A DNA stretch of 64,000 bases from Flavobacterium sp. (lineage in GTDB: Bacteria; Bacteroidota; Bacteroidia; Flavobacteriales; Flavobacteriaceae): assembly GCF_043779715.1 (NCBI RefSeq), contig NZ_JAYWDT010000240.1:1621-65620 (forward strand), in the 5' to 3' direction. Every line of letters begins with the position of its first letter. Position 1 is the stretch's first letter. Both the position numbers and the translations under genes were made by a program. Below, piece after piece: positions 43,807-63,317 of this stretch. The notes beneath the pieces were generated by a model that was given only the letters and a program-made list of their open reading frames with translations, made no database searches and was not told the origin of the DNA.

Positions 43807-44142
43807 ATGCAATCAACACTTAACACAGACCTTTTAGCAGGAATGTTAAAAAGTAAAAGAGAAGGTAAAGGTTTACGAACTATTGCTGAAGAAATTGGAA
43901 ATGTAAGTGCAGCTACATTATCAAGGATTGAGCAAGGGAAAATTCCAGACGTAGACACCTTTATAAGTATCTGTAGTTGGCTCAAGGTTACAACCGACAC
44001 CTTTATTATTGGCGAAATCCAAAATAAAATTATTTCTAACAAAGATCATGTAGTAGCTCATCTCAGAGCAGAAAAAGAATTAAGTAAAGATACCGTCAAT
44101 ATGCTTATCAAGATGATTGACATGGCTTATGAAACTAAATAA
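43807..44142 (+). CDS. XRE-family HTH regulator (CapH-like)
   Basis: GLRTIAEEIGNVSAATLSRIEQGKIPD. Confidence 0.88.
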   Translation: MQSTLNTDLLAGMLKSKREGKGLRTIAEEIGNVSAATLSRIEQGKIPDVDTFISICSWLKVTTDTFIIGEIQNKIISNKDHVVAHLRAEKELSKDTVNMLIKMIDMAYETK

Positions 44143-44153
44143 GCGTATATCTA

Positions 44154-44738
44154 TTGGCAACGAAAACTACCCTAATTCGCGGATTTAAATCCAAAGCCGA
44201 ACGCATAGCGCTCGATTATCGTCAGAAACTTGGAGTGCATGCTTGTGCACCACTTTGCGCCTTTAAGGTTGCTAAATATTTGAGTATTCCTGTTTATAAT
44301 GCTACTGAGTTTATAACAGACGAATTTGAATTGCAAAAATTAGAAGGTAAAGTTTGTGAGGAGTATGGTTGGAGTGCTTTAACAATGCTCACTAAGGCAG
44401 GCAATCGAATTATCATCCATAACAATTTTCATACAGCTGCTCGACAGCAAAGCAATATTATGCATGAGATTGCGCATATTATTTGTGAACACGAGATTAA
44501 AGCACGTCCAGAAGGAATTGTTTTACCCCTTGGGATGCGTGATTTTGATAGAAATCAAGAGGATGAAGCAATTTATTTAGGTGCGACAATGCAATTATCA
44601 CGCCCATGTCTTTTATGGGCTAAAAAGACTAAAATGACAAATGCTGAAATTGCACGTCATTATAATGCTAGCATGGAAATGGTTAATTTTAGAATTAGCT
44701 CTACTGGAGTTAACAAACAATTTCAAAAGGCAGTTTAA
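44154..44738 (+). CDS. ImmA/IrrE-family metallopeptidase (CapP-like)
   Basis: RQQSNIMHEIAH (HExxH); QEDEA. Confidence 0.88.
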   Translation: MATKTTLIRGFKSKAERIALDYRQKLGVHACAPLCAFKVAKYLSIPVYNATEFITDEFELQKLEGKVCEEYGWSALTMLTKAGNRIIIHNNFHTAARQQSNIMHEIAHIICEHEIKARPEGIVLPLGMRDFDRNQEDEAIYLGATMQLSRPCLLWAKKTKMTNAEIARHYNASMEMVNFRISSTGVNKQFQKAV

Positions 44739-44793: not shown

Positions 44794-45555
44794 TTATTTA
44801 AAAATATCTTTTAATACGCTTGATAATCTTATGCCGGCTTTCTGGATCTGTTCCTGAATAATTATAAAGTTTGCATCAACATATGAGTCATTTATTTTGG
44901 CTCCGTAAGTTTTGTAAATTATTGGTAAATAACTTCTCGATTGGTTTGCCCATTCTATCACATCGATTTTCTCAATCTGCGCTACTTCTTCTTTTGAATA
45001 GGTTTTTGCTTTTAGGCATTGTGGTAATGACAAAGTTTTATACTCTATAATTCCAGAATCGTAGAATGAGTGGAGGTTAGTTCCCCGCCCATAAAAGTTT
45101 ATCTGGTAGTTGTTTCCACCTTTATCCTCTCCATAACCTACGTGTAATGGTTGGTGTAAATCGCCTACTAAATGAAACAGAATGCATAGTTTTGTTTTTA
45201 CTTCTTCTTTAGAAAGTGTTTTGTGATTTTTTAGTTCTTCTATTGTTTTAGTTAACGCACCAATAATATTCTCTTCGTTGTTTGCGGTTATTTTCTGACC
45301 TCTCTCTGCATTTATGTAATGTAATTTTCTAAGATAATCGTAAGCCTTGTCGCTTTTAATATCATCCATCCAATTTGCGGCATCCTGAATGGTCATTCCA
45401 TCAAGATATTCTAACAATACTTTTCTTGTAGCTGGATCTAAATAATTAAATGCTACTTCTGCAACTAATGAATGTCCTTTTTTACCCCAGGCAAAGGAAG
45501 TTGTAGATTGGAAAGCTGTGAATACTATTATTGTGAGAAAAATATATCGTTTCAT
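44794..45555 (-). CDS. S1/P1 nuclease
   Basis: Signal peptide; WGKKGH, WMDDIK, HLVGDLHQPLH, NLHSFYD. Confidence 0.93.
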   Translation of the reverse strand: MKRYIFLTIIVFTAFQSTTSFAWGKKGHSLVAEVAFNYLDPATRKVLLEYLDGMTIQDAANWMDDIKSDKAYDYLRKLHYINAERGQKITANNEENIIGALTKTIEELKNHKTLSKEEVKTKLCILFHLVGDLHQPLHVGYGEDKGGNNYQINFYGRGTNLHSFYDSGIIEYKTLSLPQCLKAKTYSKEEVAQIEKIDVIEWANQSRSYLPIIYKTYGAKINDSYVDANFIIIQEQIQKAGIRLSSVLKDIFK

Positions 45556-45754: not shown

Positions 45755-46717
45755 TTAAATTTTAAACCCTTTATTTTTTGCAAAAAATATTATTGTTGCA
45801 AAAGTAATTGCATTATCAATATCTAATTTTCGATTATTGTAACTAGACTTTAAAAGGTTAATTGATTTTTCTTCATTATGTTTCACTTGATCTAAGCGAC
45901 AAAGTGATAAGAAATATTTCTCACCTACATCATAACTAAAAGCTGATGCGATAGCAAAAGAAACTTTAAGCCAATCATCATGTGTTTCTGTTATTGATAA
46001 ATTTCTTTTAGTTAGATATTTTATAATTTGTCTAATCGTATTTCTATCTTCGACTTTATTGAGACCTTCAGTGGCATAAGCACTTTTTAAGAGGGAAATA
46101 CTTTTGATTAGACCTTCTGATTTTTTTGAACTCTTTTTTTTATTTTCTTCTAAAAAATCAACATATACTTCAGCATTAGAATTAAAGAATATGTTTTCAT
46201 CCCATGAGGAAAAGCAAAGTCTTGAGATATCTTTACCGCTAACATCAAGTTCGATTTCATAGTTATCAATAAAGTAATTTTTCAAGGAGTTAAAAATAGC
46301 TTTATGTTTTTCGTAATTACTATTAATTTTTATCAACCCTTTTAGCCCGTTGCCAGAAGGAGAATCCCAAAATGATAAAATATATTTATCATTAGAAAGT
46401 ATTGTTTTGATATCTATTAGTTCGTTACTAGATAAATTGTCAATATCTAAAATCATAAGATTGTTATATATTGTTAACTCTGAAGCTTTTCTAACATTCG
46501 CGAATTCTGCACAAAAAGTTACAGCTGGTAATTTACTTTTGAGCACAACATACAATTCCTTATTATTAGCAGCTAGAGCCGCTCTGCATTTTAATATCAA
46601 ATCTTTATACTTACCAGTTTTAATATTTTTCAATTCATCAAACAATAATATACTAACGCCTTGTTTGGCAGTCATATTTTGAAACTGAGTAATTCTGATT
46701 TCCGAAAGTTTTTTCAT
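45755..46717 (-). CDS. VirE N-terminal (BT4734-like) + PriCT-2 primase-like protein, with no helicase domain
   Basis: KSKLPAVTF, LMILDID, SPSGNGLKG, DISRLCFSSWD (VirE_N); DWLKVSFAIA..G..F..L..ITFATIIFFAK..G (PriCT-2). Confidence 0.82.
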   Translation of the reverse strand: MKKLSEIRITQFQNMTAKQGVSILLFDELKNIKTGKYKDLILKCRAALAANNKELYVVLKSKLPAVTFCAEFANVRKASELTIYNNLMILDIDNLSSNELIDIKTILSNDKYILSFWDSPSGNGLKGLIKINSNYEKHKAIFNSLKNYFIDNYEIELDVSGKDISRLCFSSWDENIFFNSNAEVYVDFLEENKKKSSKKSEGLIKSISLLKSAYATEGLNKVEDRNTIRQIIKYLTKRNLSITETHDDWLKVSFAIASAFSYDVGEKYFLSLCRLDQVKHNEEKSINLLKSSYNNRKLDIDNAITFATIIFFAKNKGFKI

Positions 46718-46725
46718 ACAGTATG

Positions 46726-46743
46726 CAAAAATAGTTATATTTG
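46726..46743. promoter_or_regulatory. Back-to-back Bacteroidota -7 boxes (TAnnTTTG)
   Basis: TATTTTTG on the - strand (46733-46726) 9 nt before the primase ATG; TATATTTG on the + strand (46736-46743) before the RNA/RT. Confidence 0.6.
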
Positions 46744-46749
46744 TTTAAT

Positions 46750-46934
46750 GCGTAGCTAAGGGTGTTATGTATAACATCATTTTAAACAGGAGGGCTATTT
46801 GGCCTAGGAAGAGAAATCAACCGAAAAATCCGCGGGTCATAAGGGTCCTGATTATTTTATTTTCTGGCTCGATTGTGTATTGAGTTCATCGGTAGACAGT
46901 CTTTATTCATCTATTATTTAATTTCCGGCTACGC
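46750..46934 (+). ncRNA. Putative RT-associated structured RNA
   Basis: Terminal stem GCGTAGCT (46750-57) / GGCTACGC (46927-34); internal hairpins at 46761-78, 46787-850 and 46866-86; ~39% GC by hand count in an AT-rich island; begins just after a -7 box. Confidence 0.6.
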
Positions 46935-46951
46935 TTTTTATTTGCAAATTA

Positions 46952-48750
46952 ATGACAGATTTAAATTCTTATTTCACAGAGGAAAATATTATTAAGTTGC
47001 TCTGTAAATATAGGGCAAATGAGGCTAATAAGCGACATGCGAAACACATGATTAGAAATGTTAGTTTGCATAAATCTACTAATAAAGTTTTGATAACCGA
47101 TGAGCAAGAGAATTTCAAGTTTCTACAAAAGTTATTTCCTTCAAGAAGAGATTGGAAAAAATTAAATGAAATTGAAAGGAAAACCTATGTAGATACTTTA
47201 AGTATTAATAGAAAGCGTCTTTATAAATCATATGAAACAGCAAAAAGGGAAGTTGATACAAGAGGAGGTATTCCTGCTGAGTGGTATAAACAACTTATCG
47301 ATTTTGTGAATGAAATAAAAGATGATATTGACAATATCGAAATATCTTCATTTATATTTAGTAAACCAGATATTCTGGGGATTAAAAAGGAAATAAAGCA
47401 TGAGATTATAGAAGGGGTAAAGCATAACACCATAATATAATATACAGACCTATTGCTTTATATGAATACAAAGACAAAATAATATGTTCTTTAACTTCAA
47501 GGTATTTAGTAAATTATTTTGAGCCCCTTTTTGCCAAACTAAATTGTTCTTTTGCCTTTAGACCAAAAAATACTGATGATAGGGTTCCTGACCATCATGA
47601 TTGTATACAAGAAATTTTAGTTTACAAGAATCAACATCCTGATTTGTGGGTGTCAGAGTGTGATATTCAGAAATTTTTTGATACAGTACAGCACAATCAT
47701 ATACTTAAGGTTTTGGATAAGCATACAACGGTGGTTGAAAAAAAATCTGGGTTTATATTTGACATACGAGCGAGAAAAATTTTTAATTTATTTCTCGAAT
47801 CATTCAATTTTCAACAAAGCATTTTAAGTTTAGATGCAGCTTGGTTTGAATCTAAAAACTTACCATTTGGAAAGTTTAAGTGGGTTGAGAGCCAATTAAA
47901 TGCAAAGTTTGGCTCTAATTATACAGAAACACACAAAATTGGAGTACCACAGGGTAATGCTATCTCTTGTTTTATAGCAAATCTAATTTTACATGATGTA
48001 GATGTTAGCGTTAAGCAATATGATAGTTCAATTTTTTATATTCGATATTGTGACGATATGGTTTTAATGCATCCTGATGAAAAAAAATGTTTGGAAGCAT
48101 TAAAAATATATATGAAGGGTATTGATGATAATTATCTCTTATTTCATGCTCCGGAGAAATTTGTAAATTATAAAAATCGTTTGACAAGTCATGATTTTTG
48201 GGAATCAAAGTCAAAAGAACCTTTTTTTTGGGGAGACAAAAACTCTAATGAAAATAATGTTCCTTGGGTATCGTTTGTTGGGTATCAAGTTGACTATCAT
48301 AAGCGGATAAGAGTAAGGAAGTCTACCTTGAAAAAGGAAACTAAAAAACAAATATTTGAAACCCAAAAGGTCATAAAGGCACTAGGAAAACTTCACAGAC
48401 ACATGGAAGTGGAAGATGAGTATGCTAGATTATCCAAAGACCAAATTGTTTTTAGAATGCAACAGCGATTAATTTCGATGTCAGTAGGAAGAGTAACCAT
48501 CCATAATCACAGAAAGCCATTAGAGCAGGGATTTTGTTGGACAAATGGATTTAAAAAACTTGAAAAGAATAGAATAAGTAAGAAACAGATAAGACATTTG
48601 GATAAAAGGAGAAACCTTCAAATTAATAGAATTCGAAGAGAGCTGCGAAAAGTTGAAAAACCTAACGATAACGCTACCTTTCCCGATGAATTAAAAAAAC
48701 TTCGCTTTGGTGGTGCTTATAGTTATTATAATTTTTTAAAGCATAAATAG
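46952..48750 (+). pseudogene. UG/Abi-like reverse transcriptase (~597 aa when repaired), frameshifted at 47432-47444
   Basis: Frame 2 MTDLN..KPDILGIKKE..HNTII* joins frame 1 IIYRPIALY..SFAFRP..ECDIQKFFDTV..GVPQGNAIS..YIRYCDDMV..SFVGY; all core RT motifs present. Confidence 0.88.
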
Positions 48751-48792: not shown

Positions 48793-49524
48793 TTAATTAT
48801 CTTCTAGTACTATTAAGTATTTTTTATATAGTTCCACAAAGATTTTGTCGATTAGTATTAATACTCCGAAATAAACAAAATAATTCTCATACTTAATATT
48901 TTCTCCAAGCAGTGTTTTTAAGGTTGGCAAATTTTGCTGATATGATTGGGTATTGTGTGCTATTTTATTCCTGCGTTTGTATAAATGTTCTTCGTATATT
49001 CTTTTCAAAGAATTGTCAGTAGTTCCTGCTGCAAATAATGTGTTATCGTCATTTGCGAAAGATGAAATTAAAATACTGTTCCAAATCGTGCTGTATTCGT
49101 TAAAACTCTTTTGTGCCCAAATTGACAAATTTGTATTTAAAAACCTATTTGTCAGTTCTGAAGTTGTAGTGGATAAGATTTCCGCTTTATTGATTTCAGT
49201 TAAGACATTAAAGCTTGAATTGTATTTTTTTATTTGCTTAATTAAATCTTTATAAATTGTTTGTTTGTCTTTGAAAGTCGAACATTCGCCCAATGGCATT
49301 TTGGTAAAATGATATCTATATTCGAAATCATTAGTAGCCATTTCCCAGCAGATACATTTCATTTTTTGTTCTTGCGAACCAGTCATTTTTAGAAAAACAG
49401 ATTGCATAACATAGTCGCACATTGGGAATGTTTCAATACCACTGCCGATTCCAGCACTAGCAGAAACAACATCTTTTAATATATCGGAAATTGGCGATAA
49501 AATGAATTGACTGTGATTATGCAT
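48793..49524 (-). CDS. HEPN-like protein (putative RNase)
   Basis: C-terminal RRNKIAHN (Rx4H); overlaps the DUF262 gene by 8 nt. Confidence 0.6.
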   Translation of the reverse strand: MHNHSQFILSPISDILKDVVSASAGIGSGIETFPMCDYVMQSVFLKMTGSQEQKMKCICWEMATNDFEYRYHFTKMPLGECSTFKDKQTIYKDLIKQIKKYNSSFNVLTEINKAEILSTTTSELTNRFLNTNLSIWAQKSFNEYSTIWNSILISSFANDDNTLFAAGTTDNSLKRIYEEHLYKRRNKIAHNTQSYQQNLPTLKTLLGENIKYENYFVYFGVLILIDKIFVELYKKYLIVLEDN

Positions 49525-50698
49525 TTAGAAAAGTTTTATAAATATCAATTGAAGAATCAATGCGGGACTTCAAATACTTTAGTGCGTTTGGAGCTCTAGT
49601 GTGTGATGGATCTGCTTTGAATAATCTTATTTTTTCGTCAAGTTTTTCTTTTAGAAGATCTTTTTTGGTAATATCTAATACCTTGTTTTGAAAAACGATA
49701 GTATATATTAATCCAAACAAATACAAATCTAAATCGATAATAGATGTGTATTGTGTAGGTGTTTCCAAGGAAGTAATACTCTCCTTTAGATGTTCAAAAC
49801 GTTCACTATAATTTCGGTCATTAAAAATAGTTGAAAAATCAACAAATAATGATGAATCATTCTCGCCTACTACAGAATATATGTATTCTTCATAATAAGT
49901 TTCCATTTTAGGTTTGTAACCTCTTGCCACTTTATTCGTGTTGCCATCTTTTATATACTGTGATAATAAAGAAAGATATCGAACAAAGTCTGCCTTGGAT
50001 TCAGCACTACCGCTTCTACTAATAATAAACCGGACAAATTTTGGGTCAAAAAAATCGCCTAAATTTTTATCTAGAAAGTATAATGATGCTCGGCTTTCTT
50101 GCGGCAGGAGAACTTGTCCCTGAACATTTATATTACGAAAAACTGATGAATAATATTTCTGTTGGATTTGATCGCTGTTTGCAATATCGGGAACTAAATA
50201 TGAAAAACCGAGAAATGTCGTTTTTAGAAACTCCTCGTCAATGTTTAAATTTATATTTTTATAATTGCCCTCGGTTATTCTACTGAGTATTTGTTCTCTA
50301 TTTTTTCCTTTCTCAGTCAATAAGTTAAATTTCCATTCGAAGATATTGTCAAGCGAATCGTCCTCTTCATCTTCCTCATCTATTTCACTGGCGAATCTTT
50401 CTTGAGTCAATTTATAGATTGTTTTATCGGGATATAGCCCTAAGTACGCCAGTAATATGCTAGTTAACCTTTGCTGTCCGTCAAGAAGTAAATTTTGGTT
50501 AGCATTTCCAATTTTAAAAGCTCCAATTGTTACTGGAGGAACAAATTGCTTTTTCTTGAAAGTATTGATTAAGGTTTCTACTTTTCTTTCGTTCCAAACA
50601 AAATATCGTTGATAATCTGGAAGAATAATGTTTTGTTTTAAAATTAAATCAATCCAATGTTCTAGAGAATACTCTCCATAAAAAACTCTATTATCCAT
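49517..50698 (-). CDS. DUF262 (ParB/Srx-like, GmrSD N-terminal) domain protein
   Basis: LPDYQRYFVW, LLLDGQQRLTS, FRNINVQG. Confidence 0.87.
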   Translation of the reverse strand: MDNRVFYGEYSLEHWIDLILKQNIILPDYQRYFVWNERKVETLINTFKKKQFVPPVTIGAFKIGNANQNLLLDGQQRLTSILLAYLGLYPDKTIYKLTQERFASEIDEEDEEDDSLDNIFEWKFNLLTEKGKNREQILSRITEGNYKNINLNIDEEFLKTTFLGFSYLVPDIANSDQIQQKYYSSVFRNINVQGQVLLPQESRASLYFLDKNLGDFFDPKFVRFIISRSGSAESKADFVRYLSLLSQYIKDGNTNKVARGYKPKMETYYEEYIYSVVGENDSSLFVDFSTIFNDRNYSERFEHLKESITSLETPTQYTSIIDLDLYLFGLIYTIVFQNKVLDITKKDLLKEKLDEKIRLFKADPSHTRAPNALKYLKSRIDSSIDIYKTFLNA

Positions 50699-63232: not shown

Positions 63233-63317
63233 CGGAGAAAGAGGGATTCGAACCCCCGGACCTGTTACAGTCAACAGTTTTCAAGACTGCCGCATTCGAC
63301 CGCTCTGCCATTTCTCC
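63233..63317 (-). tRNA. trnS: tRNA-Ser (TGA)
   Basis: GGAGAAA acceptor stem, anticodon arm GCAGT-CTTGAAA-ACTGT, long variable arm, GGTTCGAATCC; CCA not encoded. Confidence 0.97.

Follow-up and report, generated by a model that had tools for sequence, protein, structure and literature searches.

A 64,000-nt stretch of Flavobacterium sp. DNA (positions 1,621 to 65,620 of contig NZ_JAYWDT010000240.1, assembly GCF_043779715.1; hereafter the window) carries, in one compact unit, a gene for a primase-like protein and a gene for a reverse transcriptase (RT), which are divergent and separated by a 234-nt spacer that holds a structured RNA ahead of the RT gene. An earlier note on this DNA had proposed a three-part system of UG/Abi RT, structured RNA and VirE_N/PriCT-2 primase-like protein, and every element it described was found in its place. 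The locus is almost certainly a UG39-type Class 2 UG/Abi RT with its cluster-64 partner. The features of the unit, followed by those of its surroundings, are listed in Table 1.

Table 1. Features of the UG39 unit and of neighboring DNA, in window coordinates.
Feature	Positions	Strand	Remarks
Whole unit	45755-48750		Primase-like gene, spacer and RT gene
Primase-like gene, 320 aa, intact	45755-46717	-	Stand-alone AEP-type; BT4734-like_N (formerly VirE_N) plus PriCT-2; RT-associated subfamily
TAnnTTTG box TATTTTTG	46726-46733	-	Promoter-like -7 element facing the primase-like gene, whose ATG lies 9 nt further
TAnnTTTG box TATATTTG	46736-46743	+	Promoter-like -7 element for the RNA and RT transcript
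Conserved structured RNA, ~194 nt	46748-46941	+	Between the + box and the RT ATG; covariance model and covariation
Helix P1	46748-57/46927-36
Helix P2	46761-67/46772-78
Helix P3	46787-90/46847-50
Helix P4	46793-95/46801-04
Helix P5	46807-08/46821-22
Helix P6	46828-30/46844-46
Helix P8	around 46865-46898
Conserved single-stranded RNA stretch	46899-46926	+
RT 5' piece (N-terminal extension), 162 aa	46952-47440	+	PADLOC RT_UG39 2.9e-25, profile 2-133; terminates at the TAA made by the frameshift
Extra nucleotides ahead of the RT domain	47402-47430		24 in-frame extra nt, starting with a repeat of TAAAGCAT
RT 3' piece, 440-aa open frame	47428-48750	+	RVT_1 domain, basic helical C-terminal domain, tail ..FGGAYSYYNF
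ATAAT-ATAAT tandem duplication	47432-47441	+	Shifts the RT frame; TAA at 47438-47440
Catalytic YCDD	48046-48057
Tail YSYY	48718-48729
HTH_3 and Peptidase_M78 genes	43807-44738	+	111 aa and 194 aa
S1/P1 nuclease gene	44794-45555	-	Just downstream of the primase-like gene
GmrSD_N/DUF262 and 243-aa protein genes	48793-50698	-	Two overlapping genes, convergent with the RT
tRNA gene	63233-63317	-	Only Rfam gathering-level match in the window

The two pieces of the RT gene match consecutive parts of a single PADLOC profile, RT_UG39 (PDLC03778), the 3' piece at 6.8e-138 (profile 134-539) and the 5' piece as given in Table 1. The next-best model, Drt9, reached 1.5e-23, and with 81 bits vs. 459 bits for UG39 we rejected DRT9 as the best family; in the RT tree it forms a very long outgroup branch. 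The UG/Abi assignment of the earlier note is thus borne out at the level of a single group. Pfam found RVT_1 (1.2e-16) as the sole domain in the RT pieces, in keeping with the Class 2 trait of an RT with no fused extra known domain, and neither the RT nor its partner passes any NCBIfam model. The earlier note had raised placement among group II intron/G2L RTs as an alternative, which we discarded: there is no Rfam intron in the window and TIGR04416 scored 79.8 bits vs. a cut-off of 300. A retron was likewise discarded, with RT models at 3.6e-9 (PADLOC) and, below cut-off, 1.7e-10 (NCBIfam) and no Rfam retron RNA.

The pairing itself is not new. Mestre et al. (2022; PMC9226505) created UG39 from 15 sequences placed earlier in UG28 ("UG28b") and paired it with cluster 64 (VirE + PriCT-2), and that survey, together with the PADLOC models, confirms the guess that RT-VirE_N neighborhoods had already been noted. 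The present locus agrees with UG39 in that both proteins score much higher with the models of this group than with all others, the genes are adjacent, and the RT lacks a fused domain. The survey describes non-coding RNAs (ncRNAs) for UG2, UG3+UG8, UG28, and UG27, and none for UG39, whereas here we find a covarying RNA of ~190 nt, a frameshifted RT, and both divergent and co-directional gene orders. What is added to the catalogued pair is therefore a comparative case for the RNA, the linkage of the two genes in two orders, a DRT9-like fold with a conserved tail, and a broken copy.

For fold comparison we used an AlphaFold2 (AF2) model of the intact, 85%-identical RT of a close relative, locus L061 (pLDDT, a per-residue confidence score, 88; predicted TM-score 0.87). 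The six best folds in the PDB were all cryo-electron microscopy chains of DRT9 (E 2e-15 to 3e-13, TM-score 0.58-0.61, ~610 columns), and G2L4, group II intron RTs, and DRT2 ranked behind them. A PDB sequence search with the RT returned matches to the RT core only, at ~1e-8. The RT ends in the motif FGxP(F/Y)SY(Y/F), in which S581 and Y582 are at least 90% conserved, distant UG39-like RTs with no partner gene included. By analogy with DRT9, this conserved F/Y-S-Y-Y/F tail suggests protein priming.

In this copy the RT is interrupted. The catalytic YCDD, the ~160-aa N-terminal extension and the basic C-terminus that the earlier note described are all present, but they lie in two frames, and a ~597-aa protein results only if one copy of the ATAAT repeat is skipped, which restores a 597-aa frame with no stop. 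Compared with the intact 589-aa RTs of L060 and L061, two close relatives assembled from metagenomes, the RT gene of the window has 29 extra nt, made up of 24 in frame and the 5 of the ATAAT duplication; they sit where the N-terminal extension joins the RT domain, with the duplication at their 3' edge. The 24 in-frame nucleotides resemble an older, diverged duplication in the linker ahead of the RT domain. No interruption was seen in any complete homologous RT gene examined, two others (L016 and L020) being cut by contig ends, and the genome of the window holds no second copy. Cultured hosts with an intact module include Flavobacterium artemisiae KCTC 62025 (L018), Algibacter lectus DSM 15365 (L005), and Mesonia oceanica ISS653 (L013).

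Most likely this copy has been switched off or recently inactivated, with its RNA and partner gene still intact, and it should not be counted as a working defense system. A recent real mutation, a variant within the population, and an assembly error are all possible origins. That the frameshift is no true mutation, but an error of assembly or a slipped-strand switch able to reverse, seems to us unlikely, though with more weight than any other alternative considered below. The assembly is a draft of 283 contigs and 91% complete, a two-copy tandem repeat of 5 nt can arise and revert through slippage, and the RNA and partner gene are undamaged. However, slippage is rare with just two repeat copies and a 5-nt duplication is atypical for a base-calling error. 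Programmed frameshifting was rejected, the junction having no slippery heptamer.

The partner belongs to a specific, RT-associated subfamily of archaeo-eukaryotic primase (AEP)-type proteins. Pfam places BT4734-like_N (PF08800, 8e-25) at residues 59-178 and PriCT_2 (PF08707, 1.1e-4) at residues 233-313, as the earlier note had recognized, and the PADLOC model RTasVirE-PriCT2 (PDLC03818, 1.8e-103) spans residues 4-319 of 320; the protein is, as also noted earlier, a helicase-less partner. About 180 homologs of the partner protein were found. Among 61 partner homologs the residues D91, D93, S119-P-S121, G124, K126, H138, D158, G161, D163, and R166 are invariant, and large primase-helicases carry the motifs to which they belong (D91-x-D93, SPSGxGxK, H138, and D158..G161-x-D163..R166-L-C) in their VirE_N domains as well. 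In its AF2 model (pLDDT 88) the partner folds into two domains with a disordered linker (192-214) between them. Its best PDB folds are AEP primase-polymerases, namely 6zp9, 6a9w, 3h20, and 2iry (cyanophage S-2L PrimPol, NrS-1, RepB', and LigD-Pol), matches that are weak by E-value (7e-3 to 8e-2) with probabilities of 0.94-1.0; a PDB sequence search with the partner gave zero matches.

The acidic residues expected of an AEP enzyme are in place, D91-x-D93 and D158/D163 being invariant and the modeled fold AEP-like. Canonical AEP motif II reads Ser-x-His, with His at the position where the partner family has Lys. Here that position reads SPSGNGLK with an invariant Lys, and H138 is invariant close by. 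Because the VirE_N primase-helicases share this arrangement, the Lys is a trait of the family and not a sign of decay. Judged by sequence and model, then, the enzyme signature of the family is intact with the helicase alone missing, and the protein is probably active. The BT4734-like (VirE_N) primase-helicases of Bacteroidota mobile elements share its AEP domain and motifs (LDxD, SPSGNGLK, H, and D..CKD..RLCF), and many also carry PriCT-2; the partner differs in lacking a helicase or other C-terminal module. Of the CRISPR-associated primase-polymerases, the NCBIfam model PrimPol_Db matches it at 8.4e-20, but at 71 bits, under the cut-off of 200.

The two genes are tightly linked. An RT scan of one genome per species gave 33 RT loci; in each of the 21 Bacteroidota loci at 38% identity or more, the partner gene lies directly ahead of the RT in divergent orientation. 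Across an even sample of 401 genomes from the phylum, the RT was present in four (1%) and the partner (338-432 bits) in the same four, adjoining the RT; the other VirE_N matches in these genomes, mostly N-termini of 700-1000-aa proteins, scored 154 bits or less vs. at least 338 for the partner, which sets it apart from the primase-helicases as a subfamily of its own. The earlier note had considered that homologous RTs might usually lack the VirE_N neighbor; both genes are kept in all 26 related Bacteroidota loci examined. When all open reading frames within about 4-6 kb on each side of these 26 loci were clustered, no third conserved gene emerged. Viral contigs yielded one weak partial match.

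In two of these loci (L053:3659-6638 and L054:3563-6660), both from the four genomes of the sample that carry the pair, the primase-like gene, a shorter RNA-like spacer of ~150 nt that has a closing stem and U-run of its own, and the RT follow one another on a single strand. Because these loci keep both genes in another order, the pairing of RT and partner survives rearrangement.

The spacer between the divergent genes holds two TAnnTTTG boxes on opposite strands, separated by 2 nt as the earlier note had reported. The motif by itself is not significant, with 100 matches in this AT-rich window vs. ~115 expected, and the boxes count only because the + box is conserved among relatives: in an alignment of 22 homologous spacers its T, T, T, and G columns are nearly invariant, and it lies 4-8 nt ahead of helix P1. 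The - box is kept only in part of the closest subgroup (the window, L004, and L007), and the evidence for it as a promoter is weak.

Downstream of the + box, the MAFFT alignment of the 22 spacers contains conserved blocks, and the closing helix shows compensatory changes (GTAG/CTAC, GTGA/TCAC, and GTCG/CGAC). We curated seven helices on 11 sequences from distantly related marine Flavobacteriaceae and built a covariance model, R1, from those alone. In the 64 kb of the window, R1 matched only the spacer RNA (55.6 bits, E about 2e-11), and it recovered nine loci outside its training set, the window included, at full length and in the expected position. In an alignment of 20 sequences, 96.3% of cells pair vs. 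79.6% after shuffling, and 28 of 37 pairs have changed on both sides vs. 15.4 expected (0/500 shuffles); when helix partners were slid by 1-3 columns, pairing fell to 37-45%. This alignment was fitted to R1, which favors the structure, but the same compensatory changes are visible in alignments made without the model. Two other pairings were considered and dropped, namely a pseudoknot of AUUAU before P3 with AUAAU before the 3' strand of P3, whose variation is merely A/G opposite U, and a pairing of UAGGU with GCCUA from RNAalifold, which competes with P5 and was replaced by it since P5 covaries better.

The upstream conservation whose absence would have counted against the earlier proposal is widespread: 20 of the 26 loci match R1 at E <= 3.2e-5, and L015 matches weakly in the right place (E about 0.01). 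R1 is not significant in the spacers of L016, L053, and L054, where the closing stem is visible by eye only, and the RNAs of L060 and L061 were compared through alignment only. Those last two spacers are 93% identical to that of the window, vs. 82-85% for the RT genes, with partner proteins at 84% and 81%. The ~185-nt foldable RNA of the earlier note thus stands as a conserved and covarying RNA of ~194 nt, and it is very probably functional. Rfam, scanned permissively over 46500-47200 and at gathering threshold across the entire window, offered no RNA family for it; found in neither Rfam nor the UG39 paper (PMC9226505), the RNA is a new element added to the catalogued pair.

A similar arrangement was seen ahead of two UG39-like RTs from Anaerovoracaceae that have no partner gene (L023:955-1128 and L025:~390-540), where a conserved upstream region contains a long-range closing helix of 14-16 bp with wobble-mediated changes and a U-rich run that ends at the RT ATG. 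Because a closing stem and U-run precede these partner-less RTs as well, the structured RNA is probably a feature of the whole UG39-like group.

The same placement would suit a leader that acts in cis on the RT mRNA, as an attenuator or a regulator of translation, in place of a trans-acting scaffold or template. In the window a U-run follows P1 at 11 nt ahead of the RT ATG, in all relatives the closing helix and U-run lie just ~11 nt ahead of the start codon, and the RNA is known here from sequence comparison. Against a leader, seven helices covarying across ~190 nt go far beyond what an attenuator needs, and conservation is higher in the RNA than in the coding sequence. The Class 2 relatives DRT2, DRT9, and DRT10 take an RNA encoded beside the RT as template, and a DRT9 locus that we fetched (L059) likewise has a terminator after its RNA region and just ahead of the RT ATG. 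We consider a leader a distinctly improbable explanation.

DRT9 (UG28) is the most informative comparison. In that system the upstream ncRNA is both scaffold and template, and the RT primes from two conserved tyrosines of its C-terminal tail to make protein-primed poly-dA (PMC12483538; PDB 9nlv, 9vma, and 9ioa). UG39 resembles it in several respects: DRT9 is the closest solved fold (TM-score about 0.6 over the full length), UG39 sequences were once classed in its group, the RNA is encoded right ahead of the RT and stops shortly before the start codon, and there are tyrosines in the last ~10 RT residues (the RT of L059 ends in ..LNYDYR). It differs in that the UG39 RT is ~100 aa longer and DRT9 has no primase partner. 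In the single DRT9 upstream region folded by minimum free energy, a U-tract follows the last hairpin and precedes the 3' strand of the closing helix; on this positional basis, the best candidate for a UG39 template is the conserved single-stranded stretch with a YUAUCU-like motif between the same two elements.

Other systems supply parallels for the remaining parts. DRT10 (UG17) combines RT, ncRNA, and SLATT in a telomerase-like synthesis of tandem repeats (bioRxiv 10.1101/2025.10.16.682844); like UG39 it is a three-part Class 2 system with an upstream ncRNA, which in DRT10 is the template, with priming by protein, but its third part is a membrane effector and not a polymerase, and its templates are defined by an A-B-A' pattern. 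In DRT7 (UG10) the RT is fused to a primase-polymerase and its product is passed on to build duplex-like DNA (bioRxiv 10.64898/2026.04.18.719102). DRT7 thus shares with UG39 the combination of an RT and an AEP-type polymerase, but it belongs to Class 1, its activities are fused, its synthesis is protein-templated with no ncRNA, and its primase domain belongs to a different AEP type (PrimS). DRT3 provides a precedent for an RT that works with a second polymerase and makes protein-templated DNA.

By analogy with DRT9, DRT10, DRT2, DRT7, and DRT3, we propose, with a probability of roughly 60%, that UG39 is a three-part module in which an RNA-templated, protein-primed complementary DNA (cDNA) is copied or extended by the primase-like enzyme. 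The RNA would bind the RT as a scaffold, and one of its conserved single-stranded stretches would act as the template, the candidate named above lying where the DRT9 template lies. DNA synthesis would be primed from the C-terminal tail of the RT itself, and the partner would take the single-stranded cDNA as template or primer, yielding a complementary strand or an extension. The DNA product may then build up during phage infection and lead to abortive infection or trap phage proteins. In DRT9 (PMC12483538) and DRT7 (bioRxiv 10.64898/2026.04.18.719102) the DNA itself drives abortive infection, and because no effector gene travels with the UG39 pair, it is plausible that here too the DNA product is the active agent. 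This particular division of labor between RT and primase is more tentative than the module as a whole.

Several observations weigh against this proposal. The RT of the present copy is broken, the association of UG39 with defense was rated inconclusive by Mestre et al. (2022; PMC9226505), and we found no experimental or mechanistic study of UG39 in the papers searched, among which that survey alone links RT, VirE, PriCT-2, and defense. The single-sequence folding energy of the RNA is unremarkable (z = -1.55 and -1.95, not significant), which leaves the fold argument of the earlier note weak where comparison among relatives upholds it. Homology between the UG39 RNA and the DRT9 ncRNA was not detectable, as R1 run on L059 with filters off scored only the terminator hairpin (E 0.3), and a universal U-tract was not found in the UG39 RNAs, whose U-runs vary and are missing in some. 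Template repeats of the DRT10 A-B-A' kind were also rejected, those in the 3' single-stranded region being no longer than in shuffled sequences (p 0.19-1.0 per sequence). Finally, 12 distant UG39-like RTs occur with no primase and still match RT_UG39 best (1e-95 to 1e-170); the primase is not essential to the RT as such.

These 12 RTs come from Cyanobacteriota, Pseudomonadota, Bacillota, Kiritimatiellota, and gut Bacteroidales, and RTs matching the UG39 model outside Bacteroidota have no partner. The primase as a part of the module, as the earlier note had it, therefore applies to the 26 related Bacteroidota loci but not to these more distant RTs, and because the latter lack it, it is a clade-specific add-on and not a universal core part. 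In a tree rooted on one DRT9 sequence, the partner-less RTs nest inside a partner-bearing grade; because the outgroup branch is very long, whether the primase was lost or gained is uncertain. Some partner-less RTs adjoin DUF1848 or WYL proteins and others adjoin housekeeping genes. In gut and rumen loci the former neighbors, DUF1848 (PADLOC RTasDUF1848, about 1e-39) or WYL-domain proteins, lie at L024:2110-3117, L025:2314-3342, L027:2561-3556, L028:2630-3556, and L030:5259-6275, and appear to be alternative partners of this group of RTs.

That the partner is dispensable in some clades would also fit a regulator or sensor. The primase-like protein may act before the RT, either by making short primers that the RT extends or by sensing phage DNA and activating the RT; AEP enzymes can prime de novo, and PriCT-2 domains go with primases. 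However, the conserved tail and DRT9-like fold favor protein priming, which requires no nucleic-acid primer, and the primase-polymerase of DRT7 works on the RT product. We therefore view action ahead of the RT as improbable, if less so than a cis-acting leader, and retain the proposal of RNA-templated, protein-primed cDNA handed on to the primase-like enzyme.

The unit lies in a defense island, as the earlier note had described it, between CBASS and DUF262-HEPN genes. The CBASS genes upstream (cyclase, 8.7e-153, and a 2TM/NUDIX effector) form an operon that ends at ~43742. Divergent from it are the genes for an HTH_3 protein and a Peptidase_M78/ImmA-IrrE protein (weak PADLOC capP match, 1.3e-3), which resemble a CapH/CapP-type pair of regulators of the CBASS genes. 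They are followed by a gene whose product, an S1/P1 nuclease (Pfam 1.2e-51), has a hydrophobic N-terminus; this gene is not part of the module because it is conserved beside the pair in 0 of 26 related loci. On the other side, the GmrSD_N/DUF262 protein (393 aa, 4.3e-20) has no nuclease C-terminus, and the 243-aa protein encoded with it has a weak HEPN_MAE_28990 match below cut-off. A DUF262 gene likewise flanks the module in L061, and the flanks of two close relatives include Qat genes, GmrSD_N, AAA_15/21, and a YoeB toxin.

These surroundings bear on a further possibility, namely that the two genes serve the replication or maintenance of a small mobile cassette, a retro-element-like replicon, and are not an immune system. 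VirE_N/PriCT-2 domains are typical of Bacteroidota mobile-element primase-helicases, the two genes move together between unrelated flanks, and their distribution is sporadic (1% of genomes). However, no integrase, helicase, or other conserved gene accompanies the pair, its neighbors are defense genes both in the window and in close relatives, viral contigs gave almost no matches, and the UG/Abi group has many members with experimentally shown anti-phage activity (PMC9226505). We consider a mobile cassette very unlikely, the least probable of the alternatives, and favor an immune module of RT, RNA, and primase-like partner.

Defense RTs make remarkably diverse DNA. DRT2 yields a new gene, DRT9 poly-dA, and DRT10 telomere-like repeats, and in both DRT3 and DRT7 the DNA is protein-templated. 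Of the unstudied groups UG39 stands closest to DRT9, and among the DRT groups compared it alone combines an RNA-dependent RT with a primase-polymerase encoded by a gene of its own. With a defined RNA (boundaries, seven helices, and conserved single-stranded stretches) and a limit of two proteins, it is directly testable. In its fullest form, UG39 could be a three-part, DNA-writing immune system in which a new RNA family templates protein-primed cDNA and a separate, helicase-less AEP enzyme converts or extends the product, a picture that we put forward only tentatively. If true, its mechanism would be distinct from those of DRT2, DRT3, DRT7, DRT9, and DRT10, and the core of RNA and RT would be either older than the primase add-on or able to outlive its loss.

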